From sequence record SRR31156797_4606: a DNA stretch of 51,587 nucleotides; one strand, written 5' to 3'. This document shows, one piece after another, positions 1,010-48,147 of this stretch. The stretch's first letter is position 1. The number at the start of each line of letters is the position of its first letter. The notes below the pieces were generated by a model. That model was not told where the DNA came from. It made no database searches and saw nothing but the letters and a program-made list of their open reading frames with translations. The translations under genes and the position numbers were made by a program.

Positions 1010-1012
1010 TTT

Positions 1013-1555
1013 CTAGTACACTGAAACGGCTAATTCAAGTAGTGAGGCCCTTACCTGTATATTGCGTTTTTTAAGGGCTGAGTAATTAATAATAAATGAG
1101 AGACGATTCTTTTTGCTAATAAATTCAATTCCCCCTTCGGATTTTGCAAAACCACTAATGTCACTCACCAAAACAAGGGGCTGATCAGCAAATCGTGTAT
1201 GCAAAGCGTCGAGCCTCTTTTCCATGGATTGACTGATAAAGAGCAGGTGACACAAGGAAACAGACTCTAGCGATTCTGCATAGACAACCCGAATCTTCCG
1301 TTCGCCAATCTTTTTTTGATTCACCCCGTTTAAAGCTCCTCCAAAAGGATTTTGCCCGACAACACAAAAGACAAGATCAGCGTCAGGGGTGGCAAAAGCC
1401 TTATCAGGCCAGGTCATAAAGCGAATAAAATTGACTAGGAACCCTGCTTTCAGTTGATATTCCTGGGAAGAGTCTGCTGCAAAAGTCGGGTAGACACCTA
1501 TCGAACAAAAAAGTATTATCCCCAGGAGCAAAAGAGTGAGTAATCGATTAATCAC
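1013..1555 (-). CDS. YfiR/HmsC-family (DUF4154-like) periplasmic protein
   Basis: Signal peptide; EYQLKAGFLVNFIRFMTWP; CVVGQNPFG; C-terminal SFIIN...IQVRASLLELA. Lies between a TBDR and a kinase. Confidence 0.85.
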   Translation of the reverse strand: MINRLLTLLLLGIILFCSIGVYPTFAADSSQEYQLKAGFLVNFIRFMTWPDKAFATPDADLVFCVVGQNPFGGALNGVNQKKIGERKIRVVYAESLESVSLCHLLFISQSMEKRLDALHTRFADQPLVLVSDISGFAKSEGGIEFISKKNRLSFIINYSALKKRNIQVRASLLELAVSVY

Positions 1556-1564
1556 AGACTCTAC

Positions 1565-8512: not shown

Positions 8513-8787
8513 GTAATCCTCCTTTTTGGGATACAATCATGCACAGTCTGGTTAACAATCTCGTCACCACATTCCCCCTTCTGCCAACATCAGCAAAAAA
8601 CAATTACCAAAAGGCTAAAATTCGTAAAACGGAGACGATTTACATCTTCAACACCTGCCATGGTACAAAGAGGATATTTATATATGATAATAGATTCATT
8701 TTTTTTGTATTGGCGACGTATTATGTTTGTAATCAATTATGAAAAAATCGTAGAAAAACATCCGTGAGTACTCTCTATTATTGGCAT

Positions 8788-22515: not shown

Positions 22516-22899
22516 TTAGATAAAATTTGAGATTTCATCTATAGCGTCCCTTACTGTGATAGGTTTTGGAAGAAAAGCGTTCATCCCGGCCTTCGCACAT
22601 TGTTCTTGCAGACCACTCCTAGACGCGCCTGAAATACCTATAATGGGCGTGACCGTACGGTGCTGATCTTTCTCACGCTGCCTGATAACTCTAGTGGCTT
22701 CCAACCCATCGGTAAGCGGCATCTCGATATCCATCAAAATTACCCTAAAACTTCCCTGCTCCCACTTAGACACAGCTTCTTGCCCATTTATGGCAAACTC
22801 TGTACGGAACTCATACGTTTCAAGTAAATTTTTCAAGAAAGTACGGATCAACCGGTTATCATCGACAATCAATATAGGATCAGGAGAATTCGTTGCCAT
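22516..22899 (-). CDS. Single-domain response regulator (REC)
   Basis: ILIVDDN; ILMDIEMPLTDG; FLPKP. Confidence 0.88.
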   Translation of the reverse strand: MATNSPDPILIVDDNRLIRTFLKNLLETYEFRTEFAINGQEAVSKWEQGSFRVILMDIEMPLTDGLEATRVIRQREKDQHRTVTPIIGISGASRSGLQEQCAKAGMNAFLPKPITVRDAIDEISNFI

Positions 22900-23203: not shown

Positions 23204-24628
23204 TTACTGCTTAGAGATACTATTCCTCTGAATATACTGACCTAAGGCTTGACGGGTTACCCCAAGAAGCTTGGCAGCTAAGGCAATACTGCCATTAGCA
23301 CGCTTTAATGCCTCTATAGACAGCATCTCTCTTGCCTCTTTTATAGTAGGTAAAATTGGCCCAAACGAAATGCTTGGGATTGTATCATCCGTTTCATTTC
23401 CGACCACCACTTTGGGACGAAATTGCCCTTGCATGACCAGACGAATGACATCAACACCAAGGTGTGAACCTTGCTGACGACTGACTGCATTTAAGATAAT
23501 TGCTTGCAATTCTCTAATGTTTCCCGGAAAAGAATGCTTTCTTAGATAAGGATAAATCTGAGGTGTCACGTTAAGCCCCTTCTTTCCAAGTTCACTTGCT
23601 GCTAACTGAAGAAAATGCTCAACCAATAACGGAAGATCATCAAAACGTTCCCGTAAAGGAGGGACTGTTACGTGATGCGTGTTAAGTCGATAATATAAAT
23701 CTTTTCTAAAAGTACCCTGTTCAACAAGATCGTCAAAATTTCTGTTTGTTGCCACAACGATTCTGGCATCGCATGTTCGCACCGCGTCTGACCCTAGGGC
23801 TAGGTACGTTTTTTCTTGCAACAAACGGAGTAATTTCAATTGAGAGGAATAACTTAAATCGCCAATTTCATCTAAGAAAAGGGTCCCACCTTCAGCTTCT
23901 TTTATCTGACCACCCCTGCTTGTATTAGCACCAGTATATGCACCTTTTACGTGTCCAAATAACGTATCAGAAAAAACTTCATCATCTACACCAGCGATAT
24001 TAACGGCAACAAATTTCCCTTTTCTTCCGCTCGCCATATGAATTGACTTGGCAACCAACTCTTTTCCTACACCTGTTTCTCCAGTAACTGCAACCACCTG
24101 ACTACTCAATGCTATGGTTTCTATATATCTAAAGAGAGCTAACATTGTCGTGTTTCTGGTAATCACATCATTGAAATACTCAAAATTAATAGGCTTTTCA
24201 TTTTTATTCTTATATCTCAGTGCTTTATTTTCGCGTCGCAAGTCTCTTAACTCAAGAGCTCCGCTTACCGAAGCAAGTAGCCTATCACTACACAGCGGCT
24301 TCTTTATGTAATCATAGGCCCCCTTCTTCATACACTTGACTACTACCTCCACTGAATCTCTTGCAGTAGCCATAACAATTGGAATTTCTGGAAAAGAAGA
24401 AGTAATCTCTTCAAGTAATTCCTCCCCATTTAAATGGGGCATTGTGATATCGAGTAAAATTAAAGATGCTCCTCCTTGCTTGAGCGTGTTTACGACCTGT
24501 CGACTATCTGAGAGAGAAAGAATATTATTATAGCCATTAATAACGAGAGTTCTCTCAATAGCCTCAGCCACATCCTGCTCGTCATCAACAACAAATATGG
24601 GTAAATCTGGTTGTAGAAATACACTCAA
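23204..24628 (-). CDS. Sigma-54-dependent response regulator (REC-AAA+-HTH, NtrC family)
   Basis: VVDDE; GETGVGKE; LFGHVKGAYTGA; LFLDEIG; FRKDLYYRL; FPGNIREL; C-terminal HTH. Confidence 0.93.
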   Translation of the reverse strand: MSVFLQPDLPIFVVDDEQDVAEAIERTLVINGYNNILSLSDSRQVVNTLKQGGASLILLDITMPHLNGEELLEEITSSFPEIPIVMATARDSVEVVVKCMKKGAYDYIKKPLCSDRLLASVSGALELRDLRRENKALRYKNKNEKPINFEYFNDVITRNTTMLALFRYIETIALSSQVVAVTGETGVGKELVAKSIHMASGRKGKFVAVNIAGVDDEVFSDTLFGHVKGAYTGANTSRGGQIKEAEGGTLFLDEIGDLSYSSQLKLLRLLQEKTYLALGSDAVRTCDARIVVATNRNFDDLVEQGTFRKDLYYRLNTHHVTVPPLRERFDDLPLLVEHFLQLAASELGKKGLNVTPQIYPYLRKHSFPGNIRELQAIILNAVSRQQGSHLGVDVIRLVMQGQFRPKVVVGNETDDTIPSISFGPILPTIKEAREMLSIEALKRANGSIALAAKLLGVTRQALGQYIQRNSISKQ

Positions 24629-26391
24629 ACCATATCCTCCACTGACACTGGAATTAATATTCTAAAAACACTACCAAGTCCCACGCTACTTTCAATCTCA
24701 AGATGATATTTCATTCTTTTTAATATACCATTACTAACCGAGAGCCCAAGCCCTGTCCCTTCACCAACCCTTTTTGTTGTATAAAAAGGTTCTAGACAAC
24801 GGTCTTTGGTAGTTTGATCCATACCAACACCGTTATCTTCAATCTCTAAAACGATAAGCTGACTACAGAGTTTCCTATGGTATTGAGACTGAAACCGAAT
24901 AGCATGTTCATCAGACTGCGACAGAGTTAATGTGACTGAAATTCTTTTACTGAATGTATTATTATTTTCAAAGCGGGCTTCAACAGCATGTCTTGCATTA
25001 GATAAAAGGTTTACAATCACTTGTTCAAATTGAGATTCATCACAGGCAACAACAGGTAATGTATCCCCAACAAGCACCTTAAACTCAATACCATTTTGCC
25101 TAAACTGCTCCTGAAAAAATACAATTGCATTCTCAAGGGGTTCTCTAAGGCATATTTTTTTTAATTTACCGGTAGGACCATGTGAAAAAGATCGTAGCCT
25201 CTCAACCAAAAGAGTTATTTTACCTACTTGTTTTTTTATGTTTCCCAAAATGCCTGATATAAAATGATCAGGAGAATTCGCCTCCAGATACTTTAACGCA
25301 TTTTCTGTATCTAAATTAATCACCGATAGTGGCTGATGAATCTCGTGCCCCATTCCAGAGGCCATCTCACCCAAAGCAGTGAGTCTACTCGAATGAGCTG
25401 CTTGTTCCTGCTGTAGAGTAAGCTCCTTTTCTAATTCTTCTTTCGCAATAGCTGTACCGATTAAAGTAGCAGAGGTTGTTAAGGCGTCAAGTTCGGGTTT
25501 GGACCACTCACGCTCGTTCCTGCAGTCCATAAACCCAAGAAATCCCCAAGTATCATTATCTACAGAAATAGGCATAAAGGCCAGTGACTTAATGCCAAAG
25601 CTGCTGAGCCAACGAGCTATATCACTATTAAAATCAATTGCATTGCCGCTTATATGTTCCAGCTGCAAAAAATATTGTAACCAGGCACTAACTGGCACTT
25701 CTTGATATATAAAATCTGGCAACACTTGATCTGGCAAACATTCGTGACTCCACCCAAAGAGCTGTCGCGCTTCTCGTTTTCCAGCAGAGTCGAAATGATG
25801 TTTAAAAACTTGCACCCTGCAGAGAGCTAAAGCAACACCGAGACGACCTACTAATTCTTCAGTGTGTGTTTCCCAGTCGTTCTTCAGCAGTAATTTTACT
25901 GCCATATCCGAAACTTCAGCCAGGACCAGATCCCTCCTCACCAATTTGGCTTCAAGTTGTTTCCGCTGGTATATATCTGTTTCAAGTTTTTTGATTAATT
26001 GATGATTTTGGACTCTTAGTAAATATTTTTCTTCAGCTCTTTTGAAAAGCTGTACTAAATCACGTTCTTCCCAGGGTTTGAGAACATACTGATAAATATT
26101 TCCTTTATTTATGGAGTCGATAATATCATCAGTATCCGTATAGGCCGTTAAGATAATCCTTACAACATCTTCATTTTGCTCCTTAATAGCTTCTAACAAT
26201 TCGACCCCAGACAACCCAGGCATACGCTGATCAGCAATGACTATTGCTATATTGGGGTTATCGTGAAAGAGTACAAGTCCTTCTTCACCTGATTTCGCCG
26301 TAATAACTTCATATTGCCTTTTAAAAGCAATTTGAAAATTGGTAAGGTTTGCTTGCTCATCATCGACGTACAAGATTTTAAATTTTGACAA
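24625..26391 (-). CDS. Cytoplasmic hybrid kinase (REC-GAF-HisKA-HATPase)
   Basis: ILYVDDE...ADQRMP; GAF-like WGFLGFMDC; GMGHEIHQPL; NLLSNA; PFYTTK...GTGLGL. TTG start with AAGGAG RBS. Confidence 0.9.
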   Translation of the reverse strand: MSKFKILYVDDEQANLTNFQIAFKRQYEVITAKSGEEGLVLFHDNPNIAIVIADQRMPGLSGVELLEAIKEQNEDVVRIILTAYTDTDDIIDSINKGNIYQYVLKPWEERDLVQLFKRAEEKYLLRVQNHQLIKKLETDIYQRKQLEAKLVRRDLVLAEVSDMAVKLLLKNDWETHTEELVGRLGVALALCRVQVFKHHFDSAGKREARQLFGWSHECLPDQVLPDFIYQEVPVSAWLQYFLQLEHISGNAIDFNSDIARWLSSFGIKSLAFMPISVDNDTWGFLGFMDCRNEREWSKPELDALTTSATLIGTAIAKEELEKELTLQQEQAAHSSRLTALGEMASGMGHEIHQPLSVINLDTENALKYLEANSPDHFISGILGNIKKQVGKITLLVERLRSFSHGPTGKLKKICLREPLENAIVFFQEQFRQNGIEFKVLVGDTLPVVACDESQFEQVIVNLLSNARHAVEARFENNNTFSKRISVTLTLSQSDEHAIRFQSQYHRKLCSQLIVLEIEDNGVGMDQTTKDRCLEPFYTTKRVGEGTGLGLSVSNGILKRMKYHLEIESSVGLGSVFRILIPVSVEDMV

Positions 26392-26476: not shown

Positions 26477-28216
26477 TTAAGGAGATTGAACAGGAAGAAT
26501 TATTTCAAAAGTTGCCCCTTTTCCTTGTTCACTGTGAACCTTTATATCACCACCTTGCTGCTTCACTATTGAGTAAGAAATACCCAGCCCAAGACCGGTC
26601 CCTTGCCCGACTTCTTTTGTTGTAAAAAAAAGATCGAATACCTTTTGTTTATCTTTTTCAGAAATACCAGAACCCGTGTCTGAAAAGAAAAGGTGAACAC
26701 TCTCATCGCGGCACTCAGTCGCAATGGTTATACTTCCTTTACCCTTTATTGCCTGGACAGCATTTTGTAGAATATTAAAAACTACCTGACTCATCCGTTC
26801 AGGCAGGCACTGCACAAGCGGTAACCCACCATATTCACGATGTACGATGACCTGTTGGAGTGATTCTTTATCCATAAAACCAATGGTAGTATTTATAAGA
26901 TTATGCAAATCCACAAAAACGTATTTTTCAGAACTTACTCTTGAGAATGTCCTCAAATCACTGACAATACGAGTAGTCCTCCTAATGCCTTCATCAACAT
27001 TTGCAAGTAACTGATCGATGGTTGGAAAAAGTTCATCAAAATAGATCTCCCCTTTAACAGCTTTGACCTCATTAACCCTCTTGTGCACTTCTTCGATAGT
27101 ATTCACCAGATCGAATTTATCGTAATAGCTGCATAACTCTTTGATCTCATCAAAAGAACGATGAAGCGATGGTAAAGCACTAGAGACAAAATTTATTGTA
27201 TTATTCATTTCATGGGCCACACCAGCAACTAACCGCCCCATGGCAGCAAGCTTTTCCTGTTGGATTAGCTGCTCCTGAGTATTCTGTAGATCAGTTAATG
27301 TCGTTGCCAACTCTGTATTAGTTTGTTTCAGTTTTACTTGTTCACTAAACAACTCCTGATTGACCTCGTTAAGCTGATGTGTGCGCTCTAAAACTTTCTT
27401 TTCTAAACTTTCATTCAATGATTCTATTCTCTCAAAAGAATAGGCCAAGGCATGAAATAGTTCATCATAGGTATCTTTCAAAAGTTCTATATCGCTAGGT
27501 CCTTCTGAGTTTGGTCTTTTCCTTTTTATCCTGGACAGCAAATCCTGCAACTGCCGAGTAAAAATGTGAATAACCACAACAATCAATAAGACATACACTG
27601 CTAAATATATGCTCGCAAAAAAACCGGTTTGAATAAGGATAGTGCTTATACTATCTCTATAACTATCTTTTGAAAAATGAACCGTGACGTACCCAACAAT
27701 TTCTTTATCTAATTTGTTTTGCGATGTTTCGACATACCACGTATCTTCGATATCCTTCTCTGCCTGAAAAAAAACTTGCCCACCGTACAAAAAAAAGTCT
27801 TCTGTTTCTTGAATAAAAATCTCACTTCCTCTTGTGTCATTAAGAATTCTCTGCAACGAAGGTTCACTCAAAGTAAACGACGTTTTGTGAGGGCCATTTT
27901 GGGTTTCCTGAAAGAGAAGCTTTTTATTTTTATTCCATATTGTTACTGCAACAATGTTCTGCTGAAGCATCAGCCCTTGTACGGGTATTACCATCTCATC
28001 AATATTCTCTATAAATATCGGAACCCGGATGGTATGAGCCAGCATTCTCACTAGACTTTTCCCCTGGAGATCTAAAGAAGACACATATGCTTTTTTCTGT
28101 ATATTTATCAGATAGAAATCCAAACACAGCACGATGACAGCCATGGGTACCACCAGGGTTACAATCATCCTGGCGCGGAAACTCTTAGGCAATGCAAGCC
28201 ATTTGCTAATCACCAC
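26477..28216 (-). CDS. Membrane sensor histidine kinase (NtrB-like) with periplasmic domain
   Basis: Two TM segments flanking a periplasmic region; coiled coil; GVAHEMNN; NILQNA; FFTTKEVGQGTGLGL. Confidence 0.9.
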   Translation of the reverse strand: MVISKWLALPKSFRARMIVTLVVPMAVIVLCLDFYLINIQKKAYVSSLDLQGKSLVRMLAHTIRVPIFIENIDEMVIPVQGLMLQQNIVAVTIWNKNKKLLFQETQNGPHKTSFTLSEPSLQRILNDTRGSEIFIQETEDFFLYGGQVFFQAEKDIEDTWYVETSQNKLDKEIVGYVTVHFSKDSYRDSISTILIQTGFFASIYLAVYVLLIVVVIHIFTRQLQDLLSRIKRKRPNSEGPSDIELLKDTYDELFHALAYSFERIESLNESLEKKVLERTHQLNEVNQELFSEQVKLKQTNTELATTLTDLQNTQEQLIQQEKLAAMGRLVAGVAHEMNNTINFVSSALPSLHRSFDEIKELCSYYDKFDLVNTIEEVHKRVNEVKAVKGEIYFDELFPTIDQLLANVDEGIRRTTRIVSDLRTFSRVSSEKYVFVDLHNLINTTIGFMDKESLQQVIVHREYGGLPLVQCLPERMSQVVFNILQNAVQAIKGKGSITIATECRDESVHLFFSDTGSGISEKDKQKVFDLFFTTKEVGQGTGLGLGISYSIVKQQGGDIKVHSEQGKGATFEIILPVQSP

Positions 28217-29323: not shown

Positions 29324-31240
29324 ATGAAAGAAGCATGCCAAACCACATGTAAAATTTTATTATGGGTAGTTATCATTACAGATGGGGTTGCCTGGGCAGC
29401 ATCAGAAAAAGCTCGAGAGGAAGAACTACTTTCATTATATTTTGATGAGAAACAACTCGTTGAAGCATCAACCCATTCCCTTAAGCCGATTAATTATGTT
29501 GCCGAAAACGTAACTATTGTCACACAAAAAGAAATCGAAGCCATGCATGCTCATACCCTGGCAGACGTTCTCAAACGTCAATCGGGTGTATTTACACATT
29601 ATTTTGGCCAAGATTATTTTGGCGATGCAAGCATATTATTACAAGGCTCCCAAAGGCATCATGTTTTATTTTTGCTTGACGGGGTACGTTTAAATCAAAA
29701 TTCCAGTGGCTTTGCTGTTACCAACTTCATTCCACTGGGTATAATCAAACGAATTGAAATTATAAAAGGGGCAGCCTCCTCCACCTGGGGCTCTGCTCTT
29801 GGTGGCGTTGTTAATATTATTACCAAAGAGACTGGCGATACCCCCAAACCAACCGGACAAGTCAATGCGAGTTATGCTGAATCAAACAGCTACGATTTGA
29901 GTGCTGACAGTGCCGGCAAGATTGAGCGACTTAGCTACTATCTCTATGGCGGCAAGTTAAATTCAGATGGCTTGGCAGTCGATAGGTATGCCACGCGTGA
30001 CGCCCTATACGGTAAACTCCAATTCCAACTTACCCCAAAATCTCAACTGTCTTTTAGCGGTGGATACAGTGATCCTTTTTACAAGGGATTAAACTGGCAA
30101 AATGCCTGGGACATTGACCAACTTAATATCTATGAAGACATAGATCAGAAAAATATATGGGGCACCCTCTCCCTTGATACCGAAATATACAAAAACACGT
30201 CTCTTCATCTTGCTTTCCAACATTTTGACACCACCCATAACATCAATAGATATTCCCTTGGCAGTGGAGTTGGCGGGGGACAGGGAACTCTGATCTATGG
30301 ACAAGAATGGCAAGATGAATCGACTAATTTTACCAGCAGAGTCTCCTGGGCAGGAGAATCAATCACCACCAATATTGGCTTTGAAATAAATCAAAGCGAA
30401 ATGGTTTATGTAAATCGCTTAGGAGCGTTTTTTGATGGCCCAACAGCCACCACAGATCCACCAGTTTCAGAAGATAGATATGGTATCTATGGCAACTTCA
30501 CGTATGTGAATGGTGACCTCTCACTTACCCCAGGAATACGATACGATGACCATTCTAACTCTGAAGAATCAGTAAGCCCATCACTTGGTGCAACGTATCA
30601 AGTCACCCCTGATACTCTTTTCCGGGCCATGGTCGCCAAAGGTTTTTCAGCACCTTATTTGAAAGCTTCTTCCCATTCTCCAGGCCTCAAACCAGAAAAG
30701 TTATGGACGTTTCAGGCTGGAGTTGAAACAGCAATCATTCCTGCCATACATTTTAAAGGAACACTCTTTCAGCATAACATTGATGATGCTTGGGAACTCG
30801 TTGATCCATGGACAAATACCGGATCATCACAACTCAATGGTTTTGAAATAGAAGCAATAACGCGTGAATTTTATGGGCTCAGCTTAACAGGCAACTTTAC
30901 CTTTACCTCCTATGATAGAGACGAAACTGAAAATAGCGCCTCTAGTGATGATGAAACCTACACAGGCAATGCCATCTTCTCCTATCAAATCCCCACCTTG
31001 GGCTTAAGAGCAGAACTTGCCGGTCATTACTACTGGATAAGTGATGAGTTACAAAACGAATTACCTGTACATGGAACTTTTTTGTGGGACCTCTTGATCG
31101 CTAAAAATTTTGAATATGCTGAATTGAGTGGTAAATTGTATATCAAAGGATATAATATTTTTAATGAGTCACAATATTTTGATTATGAATATCCTAATCC
31201 TGACCGATGGGTGGAAATAGGTATTACCCTAAAGTATTGA
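29324..31240 (+). CDS. TonB-dependent receptor
   Basis: Signal peptide; VLFLLDGVRLN; IKRIEIIKGAASSTWGSALGGVVNIITK; C-terminal YNIFN...GITLKY. Confidence 0.9.
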   Translation: MKEACQTTCKILLWVVIITDGVAWAASEKAREEELLSLYFDEKQLVEASTHSLKPINYVAENVTIVTQKEIEAMHAHTLADVLKRQSGVFTHYFGQDYFGDASILLQGSQRHHVLFLLDGVRLNQNSSGFAVTNFIPLGIIKRIEIIKGAASSTWGSALGGVVNIITKETGDTPKPTGQVNASYAESNSYDLSADSAGKIERLSYYLYGGKLNSDGLAVDRYATRDALYGKLQFQLTPKSQLSFSGGYSDPFYKGLNWQNAWDIDQLNIYEDIDQKNIWGTLSLDTEIYKNTSLHLAFQHFDTTHNINRYSLGSGVGGGQGTLIYGQEWQDESTNFTSRVSWAGESITTNIGFEINQSEMVYVNRLGAFFDGPTATTDPPVSEDRYGIYGNFTYVNGDLSLTPGIRYDDHSNSEESVSPSLGATYQVTPDTLFRAMVAKGFSAPYLKASSHSPGLKPEKLWTFQAGVETAIIPAIHFKGTLFQHNIDDAWELVDPWTNTGSSQLNGFEIEAITREFYGLSLTGNFTFTSYDRDETENSASSDDETYTGNAIFSYQIPTLGLRAELAGHYYWISDELQNELPVHGTFLWDLLIAKNFEYAELSGKLYIKGYNIFNESQYFDYEYPNPDRWVEIGITLKY

Positions 31241-31303
31241 TCGTTCTTGATTTTTCTTCTCAGAACATTGGGCTCAGTTAAAAAAACTTTCATGGAGACA
31301 AGG

Positions 31304-31402
31304 ATGAAAAAAAAACTGGTTGTTCTCACCAAGGGAAAAAACGTTAAAAAAGTAGCAACCACTGGCGGTTGTTGTTCTGGTGTTCCATCAGGCTCAAAGT
31401 AA
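31304..31402 (+). CDS. 32-aa RiPP precursor peptide (geopeptide-like): MKKKLVVLTKGKNVKKVATTGGCCSGVPSGSK
   Basis: Below the ORF-track cutoff; translated by hand. GGAG RBS at 31294-31297, ATG 31304, TAA 31400-31402. Basic leader and a Cys-Cys core; directly upstream of a radical SAM/SPASM gene. An in-frame ATG also exists at 31292. Confidence 0.85.
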   Translation: MKKKLVVLTKGKNVKKVATTGGCCSGVPSGSK

Positions 31403-31420: not shown

Positions 31421-31448
31421 GGAAGGAGAGCCTCTGCTCTCCTTTCTT
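31421..31448 (+). terminator. Stem-loop between precursor peptide and maturase
   Basis: AAGGAGAGC-ctct-GCTCTCCTT followed by TCTTATATATTT. Confidence 0.65.
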
Positions 31449-31465
31449 ATATATTTCTCTTCTAT

Positions 31466-32767
31466 ATGTATTTCTCCAACTATCTCATTTCATTTAAGTA
31501 TTCGTCAATTCACGACCACACAGTCCTTTTTTCGACTAAAACAGGTGCACTTATTCTACTGCCTGATGATGATTTTGGAGCACTTCAAAACGGTGCATTC
31601 AATAACGAATATACAGAAGATCTCACTGAGCTAGGATTTCTGGTGAAGAGTCAAGCAAAAGAGAAAGAAGAAGTACAAAGCTACATGGAGGACATCAATC
31701 ACCATAACCCAAATCTTACAGTTGCCCTTGTTTTGGGAATGGAATGTAACTTCCGCTGCTCCTACTGCTTCGAAGGTCAGCAAAAAGGCAAGAGGGGCAT
31801 GACCGATGAAACAGCCGACCAAGTCATTGACTTTATCAAAAATACGTTCAATGAAAACAAGAAAAAACTGGTCCTACAAATATATGGCGGTGAACCGCTG
31901 CTCTACACGAATCGTATAATTTATTTGGCAAAACAGTTAAAGCCATATGTAGAACAACGTAGAGCAGAGTTGGTTATTGACCTTATTACTAATGGCTCCC
32001 TCTTAACCCCTCAGGTTGTCGATGAATTAAATAAATGGGGTTTAGATGGGGTAAAAATCACCATTGATGGCCCTCCTGATAATCATAATGCATTTAGACC
32101 GTTTAAGTCCGGCGCCCCGACCTTTGACGTTATAATTAACAATATTAAAAACATCTGCACCAAAACCAAGGTCCGTTTAGGTGGAAATTACACAAACGAA
32201 ACATATCAGGACTTTGTAACAGTCCTTGATCATCTCAATGAAAAGGGCATCACTGCTGACAAAATTGAGCAAGTCCATTTTAATATCGTCATGCGGGTGA
32301 ATGATGCGATCACAAGCAATGAATATGCAGGGGGGTGCGCGACTATTAACGAGCCCTGGCTAAAAGAGGCATCCCTTCATGTCAGAAAAGAAGTCCTGAA
32401 ACGAGGGTATCCAATCGCAGACATATCTCCCGAGCCTTGTGCCGTTGAAATCAATGATGCCTATACCGTCCACTACGATGGAAGCCTTTATAAATGTGTC
32501 ACCTGGGTTGGACATGAACAGTATAAGATTGGGGATGTATGGAGCGGGGTAACAACAGCATTTGAAAAATCGCATCACATTTACCACTGGCAGCACACAG
32601 AAAAATGCAAGGAGTGTATTTATCTTCCCCTCTGCTTTGGTGGTTGCCGGTACATGGCGTATCAAAGAGATGGACATATGGGGAATGTCGACTGCAGAAA
32701 GCCCTATCTTGACGCGACCCTTAAAAGTTTATTAAAACAAGACCTCTGTTACAAATATGACCTGTAG
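31466..32767 (+). CDS. Radical SAM/SPASM peptide maturase (geopeptide maturase-like)
   Basis: CNFRCSYC (CxxxCxxC); YGGEPLL; ITNG; ITIDG; SPASM cysteines CAVE...GSLYKC...CKECIYLPLCFGGC...DC; about 80-aa N-terminal extension that could be an RRE. Confidence 0.92.
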   Translation: MYFSNYLISFKYSSIHDHTVLFSTKTGALILLPDDDFGALQNGAFNNEYTEDLTELGFLVKSQAKEKEEVQSYMEDINHHNPNLTVALVLGMECNFRCSYCFEGQQKGKRGMTDETADQVIDFIKNTFNENKKKLVLQIYGGEPLLYTNRIIYLAKQLKPYVEQRRAELVIDLITNGSLLTPQVVDELNKWGLDGVKITIDGPPDNHNAFRPFKSGAPTFDVIINNIKNICTKTKVRLGGNYTNETYQDFVTVLDHLNEKGITADKIEQVHFNIVMRVNDAITSNEYAGGCATINEPWLKEASLHVRKEVLKRGYPIADISPEPCAVEINDAYTVHYDGSLYKCVTWVGHEQYKIGDVWSGVTTAFEKSHHIYHWQHTEKCKECIYLPLCFGGCRYMAYQRDGHMGNVDCRKPYLDATLKSLLKQDLCYKYDL

Positions 32768-32819
32768 TAATTATGGTACGACCAAGTTGCTTGGTGTTAA
32801 CAAATATGACCTGCAGTAA
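32751..32819 (+). repeat. 20-bp direct repeat duplicating the 3' end of the radical SAM gene
   Basis: ACAAATATGACCTGTAGTAA (32751-32770) and ACAAATATGACCTGCAGTAA (32800-32819), with the palindrome ACCAAG-ttg-CTTGGT between them. Confidence 0.8.
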
Positions 32820-33040: not shown

Positions 33041-33253
33041 CCCCTTGATGAATTGCAATGCCTTCCAATCTGCGTATTCCTTCCAGTCCTACCTCTCCCC
33101 GGTTGGCCTTTATTTTAAGTTGATTTCCAGCCAGCAACTAACAAACAGGCTCTCGCTTAATCATACCAGCGAACCTCTTTATGTATAATCTCTGTCATTA
33201 TCTCCTCGTCAATTTTGAATAACATTCCAACAGGATACATTATATTATTTTAT

Positions 33254-33373
33254 GCAATATAGTATTGCACGATACAATATGCTGCAATACTGCATTGCAC
33301 AATACTGTATTGTAGGATATGGTCTCCCGCAATATAGTATGTGACAATACTATGTGGTGGAATACTATATCCT
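33254..33373. repeat. Tandem array of eight degenerate 15-bp palindrome-like units upstream of proV (candidate operator array)
   Basis: gcaatatagtattgc / acgatacaatatgct / gcaatactgcattgc / acaatactgtattgt / aggatatggtctccc / gcaatatagtatgtg / acaatactatgtggt / ggaatactatatcct. Exact 15-bp register; ATA invariant at positions 4-6. Confidence 0.75.
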
Positions 33374-39324: not shown

Positions 39325-42243
39325 ATGAAATCACTACTGTTCGTCGTATTTCTCGTCTTTCTTCCTGGACCTCTCTGTTTGGCCAGCAATCAGCCAACTC
39401 CAACTACCAACAAGGAATATTCCACCTGGGTGCAGGACATGAAAGCACAGCCCAGGGGACCTTTTAAAAAGGTGATGTGGTTTTGCAATGACGGCAGTGT
39501 GCTGCCGCCTAAGCCTTATGCCTGCAGAGAGCACGGCGGTGGACGGCAGCACGGCGAGTATACAAAACGCACTACTATTATGAGAGAAAATGGCTATTAC
39601 ATAGCCAACATATTAGCTGCCCTTGATATTGAAAAAACGCTGCAGGAACCTGATTTCATTGATCAGTACAACCAAATTCTGATAGAAAATTTTTTGGTTC
39701 AGATTGACGACGGCTGGATCATGAGGAAAGCTCAATTTTATCGTGGCGCTATCCAGGAAGAAAATGAAAGAGACGTCGCCAGAAAGCTTTTAACCAAGCT
39801 CAGTAATCAAGAGGAATGGATCACCTTTCGCTTTTTAGGTCTTTACAGTGGAGTACGATTACTGGCTCACGGAAAAGACACCGCTTCTGCACAACATATT
39901 CGACAACTCTCAGCTTCACTGGCTGAAAAAGATAAAGGGTTTCTGCCTCTCCGAGTAAAGATTCATGGATCTCCTGATGCAGGTGACGCTGCACTGGTTA
40001 AGCAGTATGCAAAAACGATCGAAGATAATGCCCAATACCTGCTGCTGGCAGATGAAATCGATCAGGTCTATACAGCTCCTGATCTGTCCGAGGCATTAGC
40101 TGCCCAGGCAAAAATATATTCCAAAGCACCCTGGCTGCAAAAATGGCTGCGTGACACAGCGCAAACATTGGCAAAAGACCCCAACCCTGAAAATCAATAC
40201 CGTACAACGGCAAAAGCTTTGGCCGATATACGCGATTTCTTACCAAAAATAAAAAGCCCAAATGCCAGGTTACAGTTGCTGGACTTGAGCCTGCAAGTTG
40301 AAGCCACCCATTTTACCAGCAGTACACAACTACGCAAAAACCTGCGTCAAATGCCTCGCAAGCAACTCATCAGTCTGCTGCAGACATCTGCCCTGGCTGC
40401 TTATGGCACAGGCGTGATCAATAAGAGAAGCCATCAACAGGCTGCGGCCTCCATCACCAAACTGAACAAAACTGAGGTAACTCTCACTGATTACAGTGAA
40501 GAATTACGCTATCTTGGAAGGGTGCCGGGATGGGGCACCCAAGCGATGCGTTTTCAATTTTACACTTCAATGCAAAAACTTGGGCAAATAGAACCGCTTG
40601 TCCATCTCTTTATCCAGGATCAGTTACGGGGTAGTCCTTTACTCTTTTTCTCTCAAATCCTTAATAGGCTGACCATTGATGTCAATCAACTATCAGGAGT
40701 CAAGCACAGCCTTTTCGGAAAAAAAATCGGGGTTGGATTTCATGCACTTAACCCTGGGCTGGTAAGAGGTACGCTCTATACCGATGTGCCTGCTGAAAGC
40801 ATTGCATCCATCAAGCCCGACGGCATTTACGTACTCCCGGAAACTGTTTCCGATCTTCCACCGTTATCAGGCATTATTACTGCTGGCGAGGGCAATCCAC
40901 TTTCCCATGTCCAGCTGCTTGCTCGTAATCTGGGAATCCCAAACGTAACGGTGAATGAAGATATTATCCCTGAATTACGCAAACATAATGGCCAAATTAT
41001 TATCATGGCGGTATCGCCTTCAGGTTTGGTTGAAATCAGTGCGGATAACGAACAATGGCAGGCCTTCTTTGGTGGGCCCGAAAAAAACAAAAAAGATGTT
41101 GTTATCCGGCCTGATCTGGAAAAACTGGACACATCATTTCACGAATGCATCGATTTAACCCAACTGCGCGCCACAGATTCAGGACGTATCGTCGGGCCTA
41201 AGGCCGCTAAACTTGGTGAACTCAAGCATATTTACCCGGATAAGGTAGCCAATGGAGTGGCAATTCCTTTTGGTGTTTTCCATCAATCGGTGCTGACCAA
41301 ACCATACAAAGGAAGCTCCAAAACGCTTTTTGACTGGATGACCGAACAGTATGCATTTCTCCATTCGGTGGAATCCGACCCTGTTAGTCACCGTCAAAAG
41401 ACGGAAGCCTTTCGCGCTGAATTATATGACATAATTCTTCAATCTCAACTCGACCCCGCATTTATTGATGCTCTGCGCAAATCCCTGGAACAGACATTTG
41501 GCAGCACAGATATTGGTGTCTTTGTACGCTCCGATACCAATGTGGAAGATTTACCCAACTTCACAGGAGCCGGCCTTAACCTGACCCTGCCAAATGTTAT
41601 CGGGTTTGACAATTTACTTGCTGCAGTCAAACAAGTGTGGGCATCTCCCTTCACCAAGAGAGCCTTTGCATGGCGCCAATCACATATGGAACAACCCCAA
41701 TATGTCTACCCTAGTATTCTACTGCTGCGTTCAGTGGCCAGTGACCAGTCCGGCGTCATGGTTACTGTAGACATCGACACCGGCAATCAGGATATTTTAT
41801 CAGTAGCGGTGAACGAAGGTATCGGCGGTGCCGTTGACGGACAATCAGCGGAGTCCTTACGCATAAACAGAAAAGATGCGTCGGTTCGAGTATTTGCGAC
41901 TGCTACAGCTCCTACAAGGCGACAACCATCTCCAGCAGGCGGGTTGATAGAACTCCCTGTGAGTGGATCTGAAACGCTTCTCCAGCCTGAAGAGATTCAA
42001 CAGCTCATAGAGTTTGCCAATGAGTTACCCGAGAAGTTTCCGTCCATCATTGATGATGCCGGTAATATGGCACCTGCTGATGTTGAATTTGGTTTTGTGC
42101 AGGGGCAATTGAATTTATTCCAGATTCGTCCCTTTTTAGATAATGATGCGGTACAGGGGGCCACCTACCTGATGGATATGGACAAAACCCTGCAGAGCGC
42201 CTCTTCCATAAATGTAAACATGAATGGAGTTCCGCAAAAATGA
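39325..42243 (+). CDS. Exported PEP-synthase/glucan-water-dikinase-like protein (unknown N-domain, phospho-His swivel, C-terminal PPDK_N ATP-grasp)
   Basis: Signal peptide MKSLLFVVFLVFLPGPLCLA; GNPLSHVQLLARNLGIPN; VGPKAAKLGEL; FVRSDTNVEDLPNFTGAGL; VKQVWAS; SGVMVT; DVEFG...FQIRP. Confidence 0.85.
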   Translation: MKSLLFVVFLVFLPGPLCLASNQPTPTTNKEYSTWVQDMKAQPRGPFKKVMWFCNDGSVLPPKPYACREHGGGRQHGEYTKRTTIMRENGYYIANILAALDIEKTLQEPDFIDQYNQILIENFLVQIDDGWIMRKAQFYRGAIQEENERDVARKLLTKLSNQEEWITFRFLGLYSGVRLLAHGKDTASAQHIRQLSASLAEKDKGFLPLRVKIHGSPDAGDAALVKQYAKTIEDNAQYLLLADEIDQVYTAPDLSEALAAQAKIYSKAPWLQKWLRDTAQTLAKDPNPENQYRTTAKALADIRDFLPKIKSPNARLQLLDLSLQVEATHFTSSTQLRKNLRQMPRKQLISLLQTSALAAYGTGVINKRSHQQAAASITKLNKTEVTLTDYSEELRYLGRVPGWGTQAMRFQFYTSMQKLGQIEPLVHLFIQDQLRGSPLLFFSQILNRLTIDVNQLSGVKHSLFGKKIGVGFHALNPGLVRGTLYTDVPAESIASIKPDGIYVLPETVSDLPPLSGIITAGEGNPLSHVQLLARNLGIPNVTVNEDIIPELRKHNGQIIIMAVSPSGLVEISADNEQWQAFFGGPEKNKKDVVIRPDLEKLDTSFHECIDLTQLRATDSGRIVGPKAAKLGELKHIYPDKVANGVAIPFGVFHQSVLTKPYKGSSKTLFDWMTEQYAFLHSVESDPVSHRQKTEAFRAELYDIILQSQLDPAFIDALRKSLEQTFGSTDIGVFVRSDTNVEDLPNFTGAGLNLTLPNVIGFDNLLAAVKQVWASPFTKRAFAWRQSHMEQPQYVYPSILLLRSVASDQSGVMVTVDIDTGNQDILSVAVNEGIGGAVDGQSAESLRINRKDASVRVFATATAPTRRQPSPAGGLIELPVSGSETLLQPEEIQQLIEFANELPEKFPSIIDDAGNMAPADVEFGFVQGQLNLFQIRPFLDNDAVQGATYLMDMDKTLQSASSINVNMNGVPQK

Positions 42244-43526
42244 AACAAAACAGGAACATGCACATTCTTGCCAGCCTGCTCTTCCTGCTTACCCTGTCCT
42301 CGACAATGGTTCAGGCCTACCCACTGGATGGATACGCTGACACCGGCATACGACGAACAGAAGGTGCACGTCTGGCAAACCTGGGGATCATTGCAGATGT
42401 CAAGCAACCTCCAGGTGCTCTGTTGACAACCAAACAGGTCGATCTACGTTTGCTGGAGCATAAAAGTTTTCAAATTCCTACTCCAGACCCAGAACTCTCA
42501 GCACAAATTAAAACACTGCTGGGGACACATATCAACGAGTACAGTATTGCTCTACTTGATTTAACAGACATAGCGAGCCCCCGCTATGCTGTACACCGCG
42601 GTGATCACAAACAAAATGTAGGCAGTGTCGGTAAGATACTGGTCGCGTTGGGATTTTTTCAGGCGTTGGCAGATACTTGGCCCGACGACACAACTCAACG
42701 CATTGGGGTCCTAAAAAATACACTGGTGACAGCAGATAAATTCAGCCAGTCTGATCATCATACAATCCGAATTTTTGACATAGAAAACAAAAAATTAACC
42801 AGAAAAACCATGCAAAGAGGTGATCAGGGGTCACAATGGGAATATCTGGACTGGATGCTGTCGGTCAGTTCCAATGCGGCTGCGGCAATGAACCAACGCC
42901 AAGGGATGCTGCTCACCCATTATGGTAAGGATTTCCAACCAAATGAAGAAGAAATACAGCGTTTTTTTAAAGATACGCCTACCAAAGAAAAGACAGCTCT
43001 TTACCAAAAAACATTTTGGGATCCGGTTAGCCGCAATGGTTTAGATCTTGAGCAGATGCGCCAAGGCAGCTTTTTTACTCGAGAAGGTAAACAGCAGGTA
43101 AACGGCGGCGGTAACAGCTATGCAACCGCAAACCAATTACTTAAGCTGCTGATCAAAATGGAGCAAGGGCAACTGGTTGATGAGTTTTCTTCGCGACAAT
43201 TGAAACGGCTACTGTATATGACGGAACGGCGCATTCGCTATGCCTCGGCACCGGCTCTGGCCAACTCAGCAGTCTATTATAAATCCGGATCGTTATATAA
43301 ATGCAAGAAAGAGGAAGGGTTTAAGTGCAGCGCCTACAGGGGAAATGTCCGCAATTATATGAACTCCGTCGCCATCGTCGAAAGCCCGCCTGAAGAAGGC
43401 AGTCTTTATTATATGGTGATCGTCATTTCTAATGTATTGCGGCAAAACTCGGCGATGGAGCATCAGACCTTGGGAACCCGTATTCATCGCCTAATACAGA
43501 AAGAACATTCGCCAGCTACACAATGA
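42240..43526 (+). CDS. Exported serine hydrolase, class A beta-lactamase/PBP fold
   Basis: Signal peptide; SVGK (SxxK), SSN (SxN), KSG. Its listed start at 42240 overlaps the dikinase stop codon. Confidence 0.8.
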   Translation: MKQNRNMHILASLLFLLTLSSTMVQAYPLDGYADTGIRRTEGARLANLGIIADVKQPPGALLTTKQVDLRLLEHKSFQIPTPDPELSAQIKTLLGTHINEYSIALLDLTDIASPRYAVHRGDHKQNVGSVGKILVALGFFQALADTWPDDTTQRIGVLKNTLVTADKFSQSDHHTIRIFDIENKKLTRKTMQRGDQGSQWEYLDWMLSVSSNAAAAMNQRQGMLLTHYGKDFQPNEEEIQRFFKDTPTKEKTALYQKTFWDPVSRNGLDLEQMRQGSFFTREGKQQVNGGGNSYATANQLLKLLIKMEQGQLVDEFSSRQLKRLLYMTERRIRYASAPALANSAVYYKSGSLYKCKKEEGFKCSAYRGNVRNYMNSVAIVESPPEEGSLYYMVIVISNVLRQNSAMEHQTLGTRIHRLIQKEHSPATQ

Positions 43527-43556
43527 AGCAAATGACTGAAATTCTTTTTTCATCAA

Positions 43557-45020
43557 ATGAATAAAAAACCGACAACACAACGCAGTCGCATAGAAAATTT
43601 TTTACAACTTTTTACTGATATACAGCCCGGAGAGGGAACAACGGCAATCATGATGTTTGCCAACGTCTTTCTTATTCTCTGCGCGTATTATTTCATTAAG
43701 CCACTGCGGGAAGGTTGGATTGCGGTATCTGACATTTCCGGACTGACCAAGATGGAGGTCAAAGCCTATTCCAGTTTTTTCCAGGCAATGCTGCTGCTCG
43801 TTATCGTTGGCTGGTATGGCAGGTTGTCTGAAAAATGGGACCGTTCAGCGCTGGTAGCCCGAACCACCCTTTTCTGCATTGCCAATATGGTGATGTTTTG
43901 GGTTGTCCAGCCAGGTTTGTTTTTTAAGGCACTCCCCTTTTCAGGCATTCTTTTTTACCTCTGGGTAGGCATGTTTGGTGCATTTGTTGTGGCACAGTTC
44001 TGGACCTTTTGTGCTGACATCTATACCGATGAAGCAGGCAAGCGCCTGTTACCTGTGATTGCCATAGGGGCAACATCCGGCGCGGCTTTTGGTTCTAAAA
44101 TTGTTAATATACTTGTAGGCAGCGGGTTTGTTCCTTCCGAGGCTTTACTCCTGGCCGGAACGGTACCGCTCTTTGCTTCGATTGCTCTGACGCGTCTAGT
44201 TGATGCCAGACAGCGCAACCACACTGAAGCACGGCTGAAAGCCTCCAAAGACAAGCAAAAAAAGAGGCATGGTAATAAAAAAGGCTCTCCAAAAATAGCC
44301 TCTTCCCCTTATGACACCTCACAAAAGAAACAGCAGGGGCTCAGCTTTCTTTTAAATGGTGCAAAACTCGTTTTTAACAGCCGTTTTCTGCTGGCGATTG
44401 CGCTGCTGACCTTATTAAACAACTGGGTTAATACCAATGGCGAGAACCTGTTATTTCAGGTCGTTCAGAACACGTTGACAGAGCAAGCTGTACACCAAAA
44501 AATCACTGACCCTCAATCTATACTGGAGTTTACCCGCAACGGCACCACAGCTTTTTACGGAAATTTTTTCTTTTGGGTCAATCTAGCTGCACTTCTCTTA
44601 CAAGCTCTTGTCGCTTCTCGTCTCCTTAAATTTGGCGGATTTGCGGCAATTATACTGATTCTGCCAGTGATTGCGATGATGTCATATACGGTTATGGCAC
44701 TTGTCCCCATACTCATCATCGTGAAAATTATGAAAATTGCCGAAAACTCAACAGACTATTCCTTAAACAATACTGCTCGCCACGTACTTTGGCTGCCAAT
44801 GGATTCTGCCACTACATTTCATGCTAAGCCAGCAATTGACACCTTGTATGCCCGCATCGGAGATGGCCTCGCCGCCTTAACGGTGCTGCTTGGGGTACAG
44901 ATCTTTGCCTTGTCTACAGTGCAGTTTTTTGTCTTTAATATTTTTCTTGTTTTTCTGTGGCTATTTTTTGCGGTGATACTCATCAGGGAGCGACGTAAGC
45001 TTGTGGAAAATATGGAATAA
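43557..45020 (+). CDS. NTT/TLC-family nucleotide (ATP/ADP) translocase-like MFS protein
   Basis: LCAYYFIKPLRE; YLWVGMF...VAQFW; KRLLPVIAIGATSGA; DYSLNNTARHVLWLP; KPAIDT...RIGD; about 12 TM segments. Confidence 0.82.
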   Translation: MNKKPTTQRSRIENFLQLFTDIQPGEGTTAIMMFANVFLILCAYYFIKPLREGWIAVSDISGLTKMEVKAYSSFFQAMLLLVIVGWYGRLSEKWDRSALVARTTLFCIANMVMFWVVQPGLFFKALPFSGILFYLWVGMFGAFVVAQFWTFCADIYTDEAGKRLLPVIAIGATSGAAFGSKIVNILVGSGFVPSEALLLAGTVPLFASIALTRLVDARQRNHTEARLKASKDKQKKRHGNKKGSPKIASSPYDTSQKKQQGLSFLLNGAKLVFNSRFLLAIALLTLLNNWVNTNGENLLFQVVQNTLTEQAVHQKITDPQSILEFTRNGTTAFYGNFFFWVNLAALLLQALVASRLLKFGGFAAIILILPVIAMMSYTVMALVPILIIVKIMKIAENSTDYSLNNTARHVLWLPMDSATTFHAKPAIDTLYARIGDGLAALTVLLGVQIFALSTVQFFVFNIFLVFLWLFFAVILIRERRKLVENME

Positions 45021-45031
45021 CGACAACACCT

Positions 45032-45928
45032 TTACTGCTCACCGGTAATCATTGCATGCAAAGGCAACCCTAACTTTTCCAGCCATTTCCCACCTTGCTT
45101 GGAATCTGACAGCCCGACAATAATATACTTGGAATCTTTACACTGAACCAGTGCACTGTCGGCATGACAATTTTTCCAGGAGCCTGACTTACGATAAATT
45201 TCTATTTCAGGCACATTTTCCAACCCTTTCACAAACTTGTGACGGATTCCAGGCTTACTGAGTATTTCCTTCATTTTTTCGGTATATTCTGGTGTTAACA
45301 GCTGTTCTGTTTCCAACAGGTAATAAAATCGAGCCGCCTGAATAGCGGTGGCTCCATGGGAAAAGTTATAAAGGGGATCTCGGTGATAGGCTCCACTTTT
45401 ACCATACGGTTTGCCGACCCATAAGCCGCCATTATGCTTCGGATCGTAGAGAGCAAAGTCAGGGCCCTGAATAATTTCCAATAACCGTTCTCCACCAACA
45501 AGTGACAATACATAACTCGCTGCGGTGTTGCTGGAATAGCGGATCATTTCGGTCATCTGCTTATAGAGATCATCGCTTTCCTGCAGTTTACCCGCCTCAA
45601 TCTCGACAAAGGCACCCAGCAAAATAGCAATTTTAGGTAAGCTGGCGGCATAATACATTTGGTTACCGTTAAGCTGTGCCAGGCGGGGGGTTTGCAATGC
45701 ACTTATCTCCACAACGACTAATGCAAGATGTTTATTTGTAACCTGGCTCCATAATCCCTGCTGCTTAACAACTTTTTCCAGTTTTTGCTGGAGTACAGCA
45801 TCACTTGCTTCCCAAAGCGTTGGAAAAACAGGTTGCTGGACGTTGCTGAACTCTGCAGCAAAACCTGCCAGGCAAGATACGATATACACAAGAAAAACTG
45901 ACAAAAAGAAATACATACGCATTTTCAA
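45032..45928 (-). CDS. Exported serine hydrolase, class A beta-lactamase fold
   Basis: Signal peptide; YAASLPK, SSN, KSGS, HADSALV. Converges on the NTT gene. Confidence 0.82.
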   Translation of the reverse strand: MKMRMYFFLSVFLVYIVSCLAGFAAEFSNVQQPVFPTLWEASDAVLQQKLEKVVKQQGLWSQVTNKHLALVVVEISALQTPRLAQLNGNQMYYAASLPKIAILLGAFVEIEAGKLQESDDLYKQMTEMIRYSSNTAASYVLSLVGGERLLEIIQGPDFALYDPKHNGGLWVGKPYGKSGAYHRDPLYNFSHGATAIQAARFYYLLETEQLLTPEYTEKMKEILSKPGIRHKFVKGLENVPEIEIYRKSGSWKNCHADSALVQCKDSKYIIVGLSDSKQGGKWLEKLGLPLHAMITGEQ

Positions 45929-47500: not shown

Positions 47501-47608
47501 ATGGCATATGCGCCAGTATTCAGAGTTAGCAAAACAGATTACGTATTTTTTTGTGTTTTTCTTGCGGTGCTGGTTACATTATTGAACTTATCGGGATTTA
47601 ATTTATGA
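47501..47608 (+). CDS. Unannotated 35-aa membrane peptide MAYAPVFRVSKTDYVFFCVFLAVLVTLLNLSGFNL
   Basis: Strong AAGGAGGTG RBS at 47487-47495; one hydrophobic segment; its TGA overlaps the nrfH ATG (ATGA at 47605-47608). Confidence 0.6.
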   Translation: MAYAPVFRVSKTDYVFFCVFLAVLVTLLNLSGFNL

Positions 47609-48132
47609 AAACAGGTAAATTACTAGTTTCCAGTTCTATCTTTGCCTTTGTCCTAGCCATTATAATGTTAGGATATCTGGTAAATGCATCAAAAGCCCTC
47701 TCTTACCTGTCAAAAGACCCACTAGCCTGTATCAACTGTCATGTAATGAATACTCAATATGCAACTTGGCAGCACAGTTCTCATCGTAGAGTTGCCAGTT
47801 GTGTCGAATGCCACCTACCTACAGAATCTATTGTCGACAAGTATATGGCTAAGGCCAGAGATGGATGGAACCACTCTGTAGCCTTTACCATGAACACCTT
47901 TGGGCAAAACATTCAGATTAGTGAAGATGGGGCAAAGCGTGTACAGGCTAACTGTTTATCCTGTCATGCCAAACTTGCAGAGACTCTCGTCTCTAATAGA
48001 GACAGGTATCACGATTTTAACGGCACCCCGGCGACAGACAGAAAATGCTGGGATTGTCACCGTGAGGTACCGCATGGTAAGGTAAGAAGTTTAGCAGCAA
48101 CTCCCAACAACCTTGGTGTTAGAGAACTCTAA
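47605..48132 (+). CDS. nrfH: Cytochrome c nitrite reductase small subunit (tetraheme quinol dehydrogenase)
   Basis: N-terminal TM; CINCHVM, CVECH, CLSCH, CWDCH; VPHG. Confidence 0.95.
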   Translation: MKTGKLLVSSSIFAFVLAIIMLGYLVNASKALSYLSKDPLACINCHVMNTQYATWQHSSHRRVASCVECHLPTESIVDKYMAKARDGWNHSVAFTMNTFGQNIQISEDGAKRVQANCLSCHAKLAETLVSNRDRYHDFNGTPATDRKCWDCHREVPHGKVRSLAATPNNLGVREL

Positions 48133-48147
48133 TTCGTGGAGGAAATA

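Follow-up and report, generated by a model that had tools for sequence, protein, structure and literature searches.

The described system closest to the locus reported here, in both sequence and fold of its maturase, is the SCIFF ranthipeptide pair CteA/CteB (PDB 5WHY, 5WGG), whose enzyme likewise combines a RiPP-recognition element (RRE) with a SPASM domain. According to the available text of PMC8326336, the leader is bound by CteB as a beta-strand on the RRE, the substrate Cys thiol sits on an open iron, and quorum sensing is listed for SCIFF products. The identity is only 20%, however, and CteA is a six-cysteine, 45-residue substrate of Clostridia, whereas the peptide studied here has two adjacent cysteines and is accompanied by an outer-membrane receptor module. 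The CrpC/CrpA system of Methanococcus voltae (TIGR04463) gives the third-best family match, at 182.6 bits; CrpC is a seven-cysteine enzyme that installs thioethers, and the seven SPASM cysteines of our maturase match the spacing reported for it, but our maturase scores far below the TIGR04463 cut-off of 525 and CrpA is a large protein in which Cys motifs recur (available text of PMC13692751). The type 2 sactipeptides (streptosactin/GggB, QmpB) resemble our peptide in their two cysteines, their short Gly/Ser/Pro-rich core and the small rings expected of it; as far as the available text of PMC9389541 goes, their cysteines alternate with acceptors, unlike the adjacent cysteines found here, and they occur in a streptococcal context without a TonB receptor module.

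In the databases the family itself is already defined: NCBIfam/TIGRFAM list a geopeptide system, made up of a precursor model (TIGR04229) and a maturase model (TIGR04280) and classed as a 'hypothetical equivalog', and the peptide described here is a new member of it. The descriptions returned for the two models named no product, chemistry or neighboring genes. Literature searches found no paper on the system, and the accessible portions of PMC3531188 and PMC3543383 contain nothing on it; the family is apparently unstudied in the literature, and radical-SAM genome-mining tables in subscription journals may list it.

The locus lies within a stretch of 51,587 nucleotides (record SRR31156797_4606), hereafter the window. 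Its precursor gene, at 31304..31402 on the + strand, encodes MKKKLVVLTKGKNVKKVATTGGCCSGVPSGSK, 32 residues followed by a stop codon, and is assigned to the geopeptide family by homology, coding selection and profile rank. A GGAG ribosome-binding site lies at 31294..31297 (+), 6 nt 5' of the ATG, as similar purine-rich sites do before other peptides of the family, and 63 bp separate the precursor stop at 31402 from the maturase start at 31466. The original prediction had named this reading frame, this ribosome-binding site and this distance to the maturase, and all of them were borne out, the translation being exact. The mechanical ORF finder called the same frame as a 51-residue ORF starting with a TTG at 31247, so short that usual length limits would drop it. 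An alternative in-frame ATG at 31292 is a less likely start, since it overlaps the ribosome-binding site.

Compared with its 12 close relatives, the precursor displays a pS of 0.76 and a pN of 0.26 (synonymous versus non-synonymous differences), indicating that it is under coding selection. Adjacent cysteines occur in two of the 18 window ORFs of 25-50 residues that have a ribosome-binding site and an ATG, the precursor being one of the two. Leave-out profiles, built from the peptides of maturases less than 50, 45 or 40% identical to the window maturase (83, 72 and 30 peptides, respectively), ranked the precursor frame first of 1981 window frames, with E values of 1.3e-11 to 5.6e-11 and the next match at 0.23 or worse; the strictest of them (30 peptides, maturases <40% identical, best TIGR04229 match included) gave 5.6e-11. 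Judged from these sequence comparisons, the 31304-31402 ORF is almost certainly a translated gene.

The gene recurs upstream of related maturases. The nearest named relatives are three Ca. Electrothrix records, whose maturases are 70% identical to ours and each of which has a 32-residue homologue of the peptide upstream. Using a rule blind to cysteines, by which loci were picked by maturase match alone and searched for a small ORF led by a ribosome-binding site within 500 nt upstream, such an ORF was found at 55 of the 61 loci whose upstream DNA was long enough; CC is present in 53 of these ORFs and CxC in one, and one is unrelated, in line with the expectation of the original prediction that a CC-containing ORF would be conserved upstream of maturase orthologues. 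All the maturases in the 41 large regions described below have their own peptide, including both copies of tandem duplications. A profile search of 1.84 billion representatives retrieved 127 proteins, all of 28-77 residues and 125 of them with CC, and the names in the eight clusters looked up were 'hypothetical protein', none at all or, once, 'putative radical SAM-modified peptide'. In the ESM Atlas the precursor query found only unnamed clusters with scores under 0.9, to be taken as leads only.

To define the features of the family, we aligned 113 peptides, the window copy included, on their second cysteine; many of them are close kin, and the profile that retrieved them had been seeded with CC peptides. 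The second cysteine of the pair at 31370..31375 (+), Cys24, is present in 113/113 peptides and Cys23 in 108/113. In the leader, residues 5-11 (LVVLTKG, 31316..31336, +) form a conserved hydrophobic strand ending in Gly, the predicted binding site for the RRE of the maturase: counted from the second cysteine, V or I stands at -17 in 99 of the 113 peptides, L at -16 in 79 and G at -13 in 85. Further preferences are A at -6 (89/113), P at +4 (65/113) and K or R at +8 (64/113). The Gly-Gly preceding the cysteines (31364..31369, +) is not conserved, being found in 3/113 peptides and in 1/127 database matches, and the net charge of the leader is positive in 58 of the 113 peptides, negative in 52 and zero in the remaining 3. 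Both the Lys-rich leader and the Gly-Gly noted in the original prediction are thus real in the window copy, without being features of the family.

In five peptides the first cysteine is replaced by N, F or G. These peptides (L157, L158, L163, L172 and L183) form one clade in both the maturase tree and the receptor tree, so the loss was one event. In four of the five maturases of this clade, an additional Cys stands two positions ahead of the C344 equivalent. CxC was observed in two further loci, L028 and L195, outside the 113 peptides. Beyond the cysteines, D or E falls within +1 to +5 of Cys24 in only 6/113 peptides and in none of these positions in the window peptide, while G lies within +1 to +3 in 85/113 and P within +1 to +6 in 92/113. 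In ranthipeptides of the PapB/QhpD type, an Asp or Glu acceptor follows shortly after the donor Cys. The rarity of D/E and the frequency of G/P after Cys24 therefore exclude an acidic acceptor of the PapB type and make small acceptors more likely.

With respect to the catalogued family, the maturase and the peptide behave differently. The window maturase matches TIGR04280 over residues 1-429 with 462.5 bits, above the cut-off of 400, and a short precursor with a hydrophobic strand, a Gly and Cys-Cys lies directly upstream of it, as in the geopeptide system. The window peptide, by comparison, does not match TIGR04229 at E up to 10, nor any model in the NCBIfam and Pfam scans, and its leader is basic where those of the best TIGR04229 matches are acidic; the geopeptide resemblance noted in the original prediction thus holds for the enzyme and fails for the precursor model. 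TIGR04229 is a narrow, 22-position model, which 0/48 homologues pass and 14/48 match weakly, the best reaching 29.6 bits against a cut-off of 30, and a search with it of three orthologous genomes did not recover their peptides. Since this model misses nearly all members (0/49 tested pass), the peptide genes go unnamed. By its maturase and by transitive homology, the window peptide is, on the sequence evidence, a member of the geopeptide system while failing TIGR04229 itself, and thus a divergent member of the catalogued family. Across the family, the peptides diverge in step with their maturases (rank r 0.65 between the distances).

The maturase, a 433-residue ORF at 31466..32767 (+), is identified by profile match, model and conserved cysteines as a radical SAM/SPASM enzyme with an N-terminal RRE-like domain, an architecture shared with the thioether-forming radical SAM RiPPs (sactipeptides and ranthipeptides). 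An alignment-based model of it (pLDDT 95) found CteB as its best match in both Foldseek and VIA-align, residues 4-428 aligning with CteB 1-448, RRE included, with a Z score of 29.3 and an rmsd of 4.4 over 381 aligned residues. The three cysteines of the SAM cluster (C94, C98 and C101) and the seven SPASM cysteines are kept in at least 107 of 108 maturases, the latter (C325, C344, C381, C384, C390, C394 and C410) being invariant where readable. An eighth cysteine, C291, is kept in 102/108 and is off its column in six, about three of which have no nearby substitute; to judge from its conservation, it could serve as an eighth ligand that closes the open iron site of auxiliary cluster I. After TIGR04280, the next-best family matches are the TIGR04463, CefB and PapB models.

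Taken together, the CteB-like fold with its RRE, the conserved SPASM cysteines and their CrpC-matching spacing make thioether formation the best inference. The peptide is very probably the substrate of the adjacent maturase, with residues 5-11 as the predicted grip for the RRE, and by analogy with the described enzymes a thioether is likely at Cys24, and probably at Cys23 as well. In the mechanism that we propose, the N-terminal RRE would grip the LVVLTKG strand as CteB grips CteA, the substrate thiol would bind the open iron of auxiliary cluster I, and the SAM radical would abstract a hydrogen, yielding a Cys-to-carbon thioether. Cys24 would be the obligatory donor and Cys23 a second, dispensable one, and, as acceptors, small residues at the four positions that follow (S25-G26-V27-P28 in the window peptide) would be more probable than Asp or Glu. 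If true, cross-links on adjacent cysteines would constitute a ring topology not found in the reviews examined.

Between the precursor and the maturase genes, folding of the sequence and family comparison revealed a terminator-like hairpin of 11 bp with a T-rich tail (31421..31456, +). Such a hairpin follows 69/108 family peptides, compared with about one in shuffled sequences and 16 when the reverse strand is examined, and by its position 3' of the peptide gene it may keep the peptide message in excess over that of the enzyme. At 31447-31465 there is no obvious ribosome-binding site before the ATG of the maturase, some relatives having one, and so translation of the window maturase may be weak. 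Sigma-54 promoters are not enriched (5/113 upstream of peptides and 5/109 upstream of receptors), so no autoinduction loop is seen, sigma-70 promoter matches are at chance level (17 versus 13.9), and an Rfam scan of the window gave no match and no riboswitch.

The most informative feature of the locus lies outside 31304-31402 and is a conserved receptor and sensor module. A TonB-dependent outer-membrane receptor of 638 residues (29324..31240, +) lies on the same strand as the peptide gene and ends 63 bp upstream of it. Farther upstream and on the - strand, the domain scan found a periplasmic binding protein (PF04392, 28206..29126) with no ABC permease beside it, a membrane histidine kinase (26477..28216) with two predicted transmembrane segments (12-40 and 193-223) around a periplasmic domain, a soluble receiver-GAF-histidine kinase (24625..26391), which is a less conserved part of the module, a sigma-54-dependent response regulator (23204..24628), present in a minority of relatives, and a single-domain response regulator (22516..22899). 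The module pairs a two-helix membrane kinase with a periplasmic protein that has no permease next to it, and in this it resembles relays of the YfiR/HmsC type, from which it differs in that its binding protein belongs to PF04392 and that it is tied to a peptide and a maturase. LuxPQ and agr may offer a further parallel to the logic of such relays. At its very start (2-3631, -), the window carries a second triad, composed of a TonB-dependent receptor (1568-3631), a YfiR/HmsC-like protein (1016-1555) and a CHASE8 histidine kinase (2-1009), with no peptide of the family beside it.

We then compared 40 large regions around maturase matches, picked from 60 loci by the length of their contigs and including one flank without a maturase, together with L002 and L003. 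A TonB-dependent receptor lies beside the maturase in 41/41 maturase regions, and the binding protein and kinase in 36/41, two of the five exceptions being cut by contig ends; the 41 regions show several gene orders, and the linkage survives them. In a larger set, partly selected for both genes, receptor, binding protein and kinase are all present in 82 of the 90 units with enough flank. Among 401 genomes of the order, the maturase occurs in 98 (about a quarter) and the receptor in 108, with 94 genomes having the two together, and of 401 genomes of the phylum 26 have the maturase; as the sampled genomes are related, the co-occurrence counts overstate independence. Twelve of the 14 receptor-only genomes comprise five cut by contig ends, one with a frameshift, two with divergent maturases and their own CC peptides, and four that look receptor-only. 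The first of these four, L114, has lost the peptide core and most of the maturase to a deletion (8721-9155), so that the beginning of the peptide gene runs into the final third of the maturase gene, with receptor, binding protein and kinase left open; L116 has a maturase fragment, L120 a peptide with no maturase nearby, and L117 no peptide.

Phylogenetically, 131 receptors group in a single supported clade; of the 49 supported splits among the maturases, 33 also appear in the receptor tree and 13 conflict with it. The three loci of a sister branch (L196-L198) each have the receptor, a CC peptide and a maturase that scores under the TIGR04280 cut-off; their binding protein is of family 5 in 3/3 cases, and a dCache kinase was seen in 2/3. 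Receptors beyond the clade sit among cobalamin genes (L202-L211). L115 and L123, whose maturases likewise miss the TIGR04280 cut-off, are divergent branches that carry CC peptides of their own. In a number of loci (L076, L106, L111, L112, L137; L102, L107, L110, L132, L165) we observed cassettes repeated in tandem, whose peptides differ from one another, or an extra receptor that has no peptide of its own. Of the 136 longer neighbors, 89 were scanned, and these held no conserved exporter or peptidase (an MFS protein near five regions, ABC-2 near one) and no C39-peptidase/PCAT gene, the latter being absent from the window too; the window scan found no exporter gene beside the window copy, and the window peptide has no hydrophobic signal sequence. 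In L101 (8136-9413) and L106 (11263-12528), an MFS 'secretion effector' gene lies on the opposite strand between peptide and maturase or between two maturases, and is a candidate exporter in these lineages only.

That the peptide gene nearly always comes with an outer-membrane receptor and a sensor kinase suggests that the peptide is made, and then detected, by the cell. The compact modified product would leave the cell by an unassigned general route, the co-inherited TonB-dependent receptor would take it into the periplasm, and the periplasmic binding protein would report it to the membrane histidine kinase, making it a self-made peptide signal. As a whole, this chain of cross-linking, export, re-uptake and sensing across the envelope is read from gene context, and we hold it tentatively, at somewhat below an even chance. 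In its favor, besides the linkage in the 41 regions and the tree splits shared by maturase and receptor, 94 of the 98 maturase genomes carry the receptor and 94 of the 108 receptor genomes the maturase, the sister branch keeps receptor, peptide and maturase despite its swapped binding protein and kinase, and the sensing genes persist in L114, L116 and L120, where the maturase has been deleted, is a fragment or is missing from the vicinity. Against it stand the lack of a conserved exporter or peptidase among the scanned neighbors, the 13 conflicting splits and the missing enrichment of sigma-54 promoters, and the peptide follows the maturase more closely than the receptor (partial r 0.47 versus 0.12; for the tail alone, 0.24 versus 0.06), although the two values are closer, 0.22 versus 0.17, in the 86 in-register peptides. 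Triads of receptor, binding protein and kinase also occur without a peptide at L117, L124 and window 2-3631, and the closest solved relatives of the binding protein, which we take to be of the small-ligand class, count against the sensing of a peptide.

The same observations allow the modified peptide to stay within the cell or serve a separate role, with peptide and maturase as the co-transcribed output of a module that senses another molecule. The co-variation of peptide with maturase, the triads without peptides and the missing exporter and peptidase among the scanned neighbors all fit this reading, as does the position of the peptide gene, which follows the receptor gene immediately and in the same orientation, a terminator separating the two in only 8/101 cases. 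Against it stand a linkage that is near-universal and survives both inversion of gene order and, in the sister branch, replacement of binding protein and kinase, and the insert in L091, L098 and L101 that parts the peptide from the maturase while the peptide still adjoins the receptor; we consider it rather unlikely. A metal- or cofactor-scavenging peptide, released, loaded and recognized by the receptor, with the kinase reporting the loaded state, appears quite unlikely to us: its cysteine core, the cobalamin operons around receptors outside the clade and the FmdE or iron-repressor genes near a few loci would suit it, as would the family-5 binding proteins, which include metal-chelate binders, but the module has no ABC permease or ATPase, thioether formation would use up the thiols, one clade keeps a single Cys, and the window holds no Rfam riboswitch. 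Export by a double-glycine route, in which a peptidase-containing ABC transporter would cut the leader and release a ten-residue bacteriocin-like core, is very improbable. It was prompted by the Gly-Gly directly before the cysteines of the window copy, which the original prediction proposed as a possible mark of leader cleavage; this proposal found no support, given that Gly-Gly is kept in only 3/113 peptides, and the three nearest named orthologues, with their 70%-identical maturases, read SN, GD and GS at that position, the route being further opposed by the lack of a C39 peptidase among the scanned neighbors and in the window.

Two further alternatives concern the enzyme and the reading frame rather than the fate of the product. 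The same substrate and enzyme could be joined by another chemistry, with the Cys oxidized to an aldehyde as by the anaerobic sulfatase maturases, or changed in some other way that makes no thioether, which would be compatible with signaling. Such a chemistry is unlikely in our estimate: anSME is the next structural match and close to CteB (Z 28.1 versus 29.3; rmsd 3.2, 326 aligned residues), the 113 peptides share no single conserved acceptor residue, and C291 may turn the SPASM domain into an eight-cysteine one, but the anSME alignment begins only at residue 82, the N-terminal domain being absent from that enzyme, models of Cys-rich-peptide maturases score 149-201 bits with the window maturase against 81 bits for the sulfatase maturase model, and C291 strays from its column in some maturases, as described above. 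It is extremely improbable that the precursor ORF is instead an attenuator leader, in which stalling on the tandem Cys codons sets read-through of the hairpin into the maturase gene. Its shortness, its tandem Cys codons and the conserved terminator-like hairpin would fit such a role, and in the window copy an upstream stretch can pair with the 5' arm of the hairpin (-11.4 kcal/mol, z -3.0); this pairing, though, is weaker than the terminator itself (-16.7 kcal/mol), the enzyme carries a peptide-binding domain, and no conserved antiterminator is apparent, only six of 69 loci falling below a z of -2. Attenuation was rejected on these grounds, together with the mean pairing z of -0.07 over the 69 loci and the protein-level conservation of residues other than the cysteines.

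Returning to a peptide sensed by the cell that makes it, we can extend the proposal to the family as a whole, in a form that we regard as possible but doubtful. Geopeptides might be a widespread means of cell-to-cell signaling among anaerobic Gram-negative bacteria, including cable bacteria (Ca. Electrothrix), in which a radical-SAM enzyme would close one or two tight thioether rings at neighboring cysteines and a relay of TonB receptor, periplasmic binding protein and histidine kinase would read the product; variable tails would act as strain-specific dialects, tandem cassettes and spare receptors would serve for listening to others, and some lineages would have the sensor but no synthesis. 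If true, the reading of a radical-SAM peptide via a TonB receptor and a sensor kinase would add a rare example of peptide signaling in Gram-negative anaerobes, and the five-gene module is small enough for direct testing.

Several other features were observed in the window and in related loci. A direct repeat of 20 nt (32751-32770 and 32800-32819) runs across the stop codon of the window maturase. This enzyme is 94% identical to its homologue P0002 and seven residues shorter, retaining all cysteines, and the frames that follow the repeat, up to 33140, look like the broken start of what we take to be an IS transposase. The maturases of L086 (6300-7097, +) and L087 (10928-11797, +) carry a fused C-terminal domain of ~270-290 residues with a DDxxD-like motif, which may add a second modification; the domain has no Pfam match in either locus, and that of L086 has none in NCBIfam or Atlas and no convincing PDB match. 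At 33250-33370, upstream of a glycine-betaine ABC transporter operon, lie degenerate 15-nt repeats with inverted symmetry, possibly regulator sites. Farther downstream, the window contains a PEP-utilising (PPDK_N) gene, two genes without a Pfam match and a gene of the serine beta-lactamase fold (39325-45928), followed by a NapC/NirT and cytochrome c552 pair at 47605-49653.
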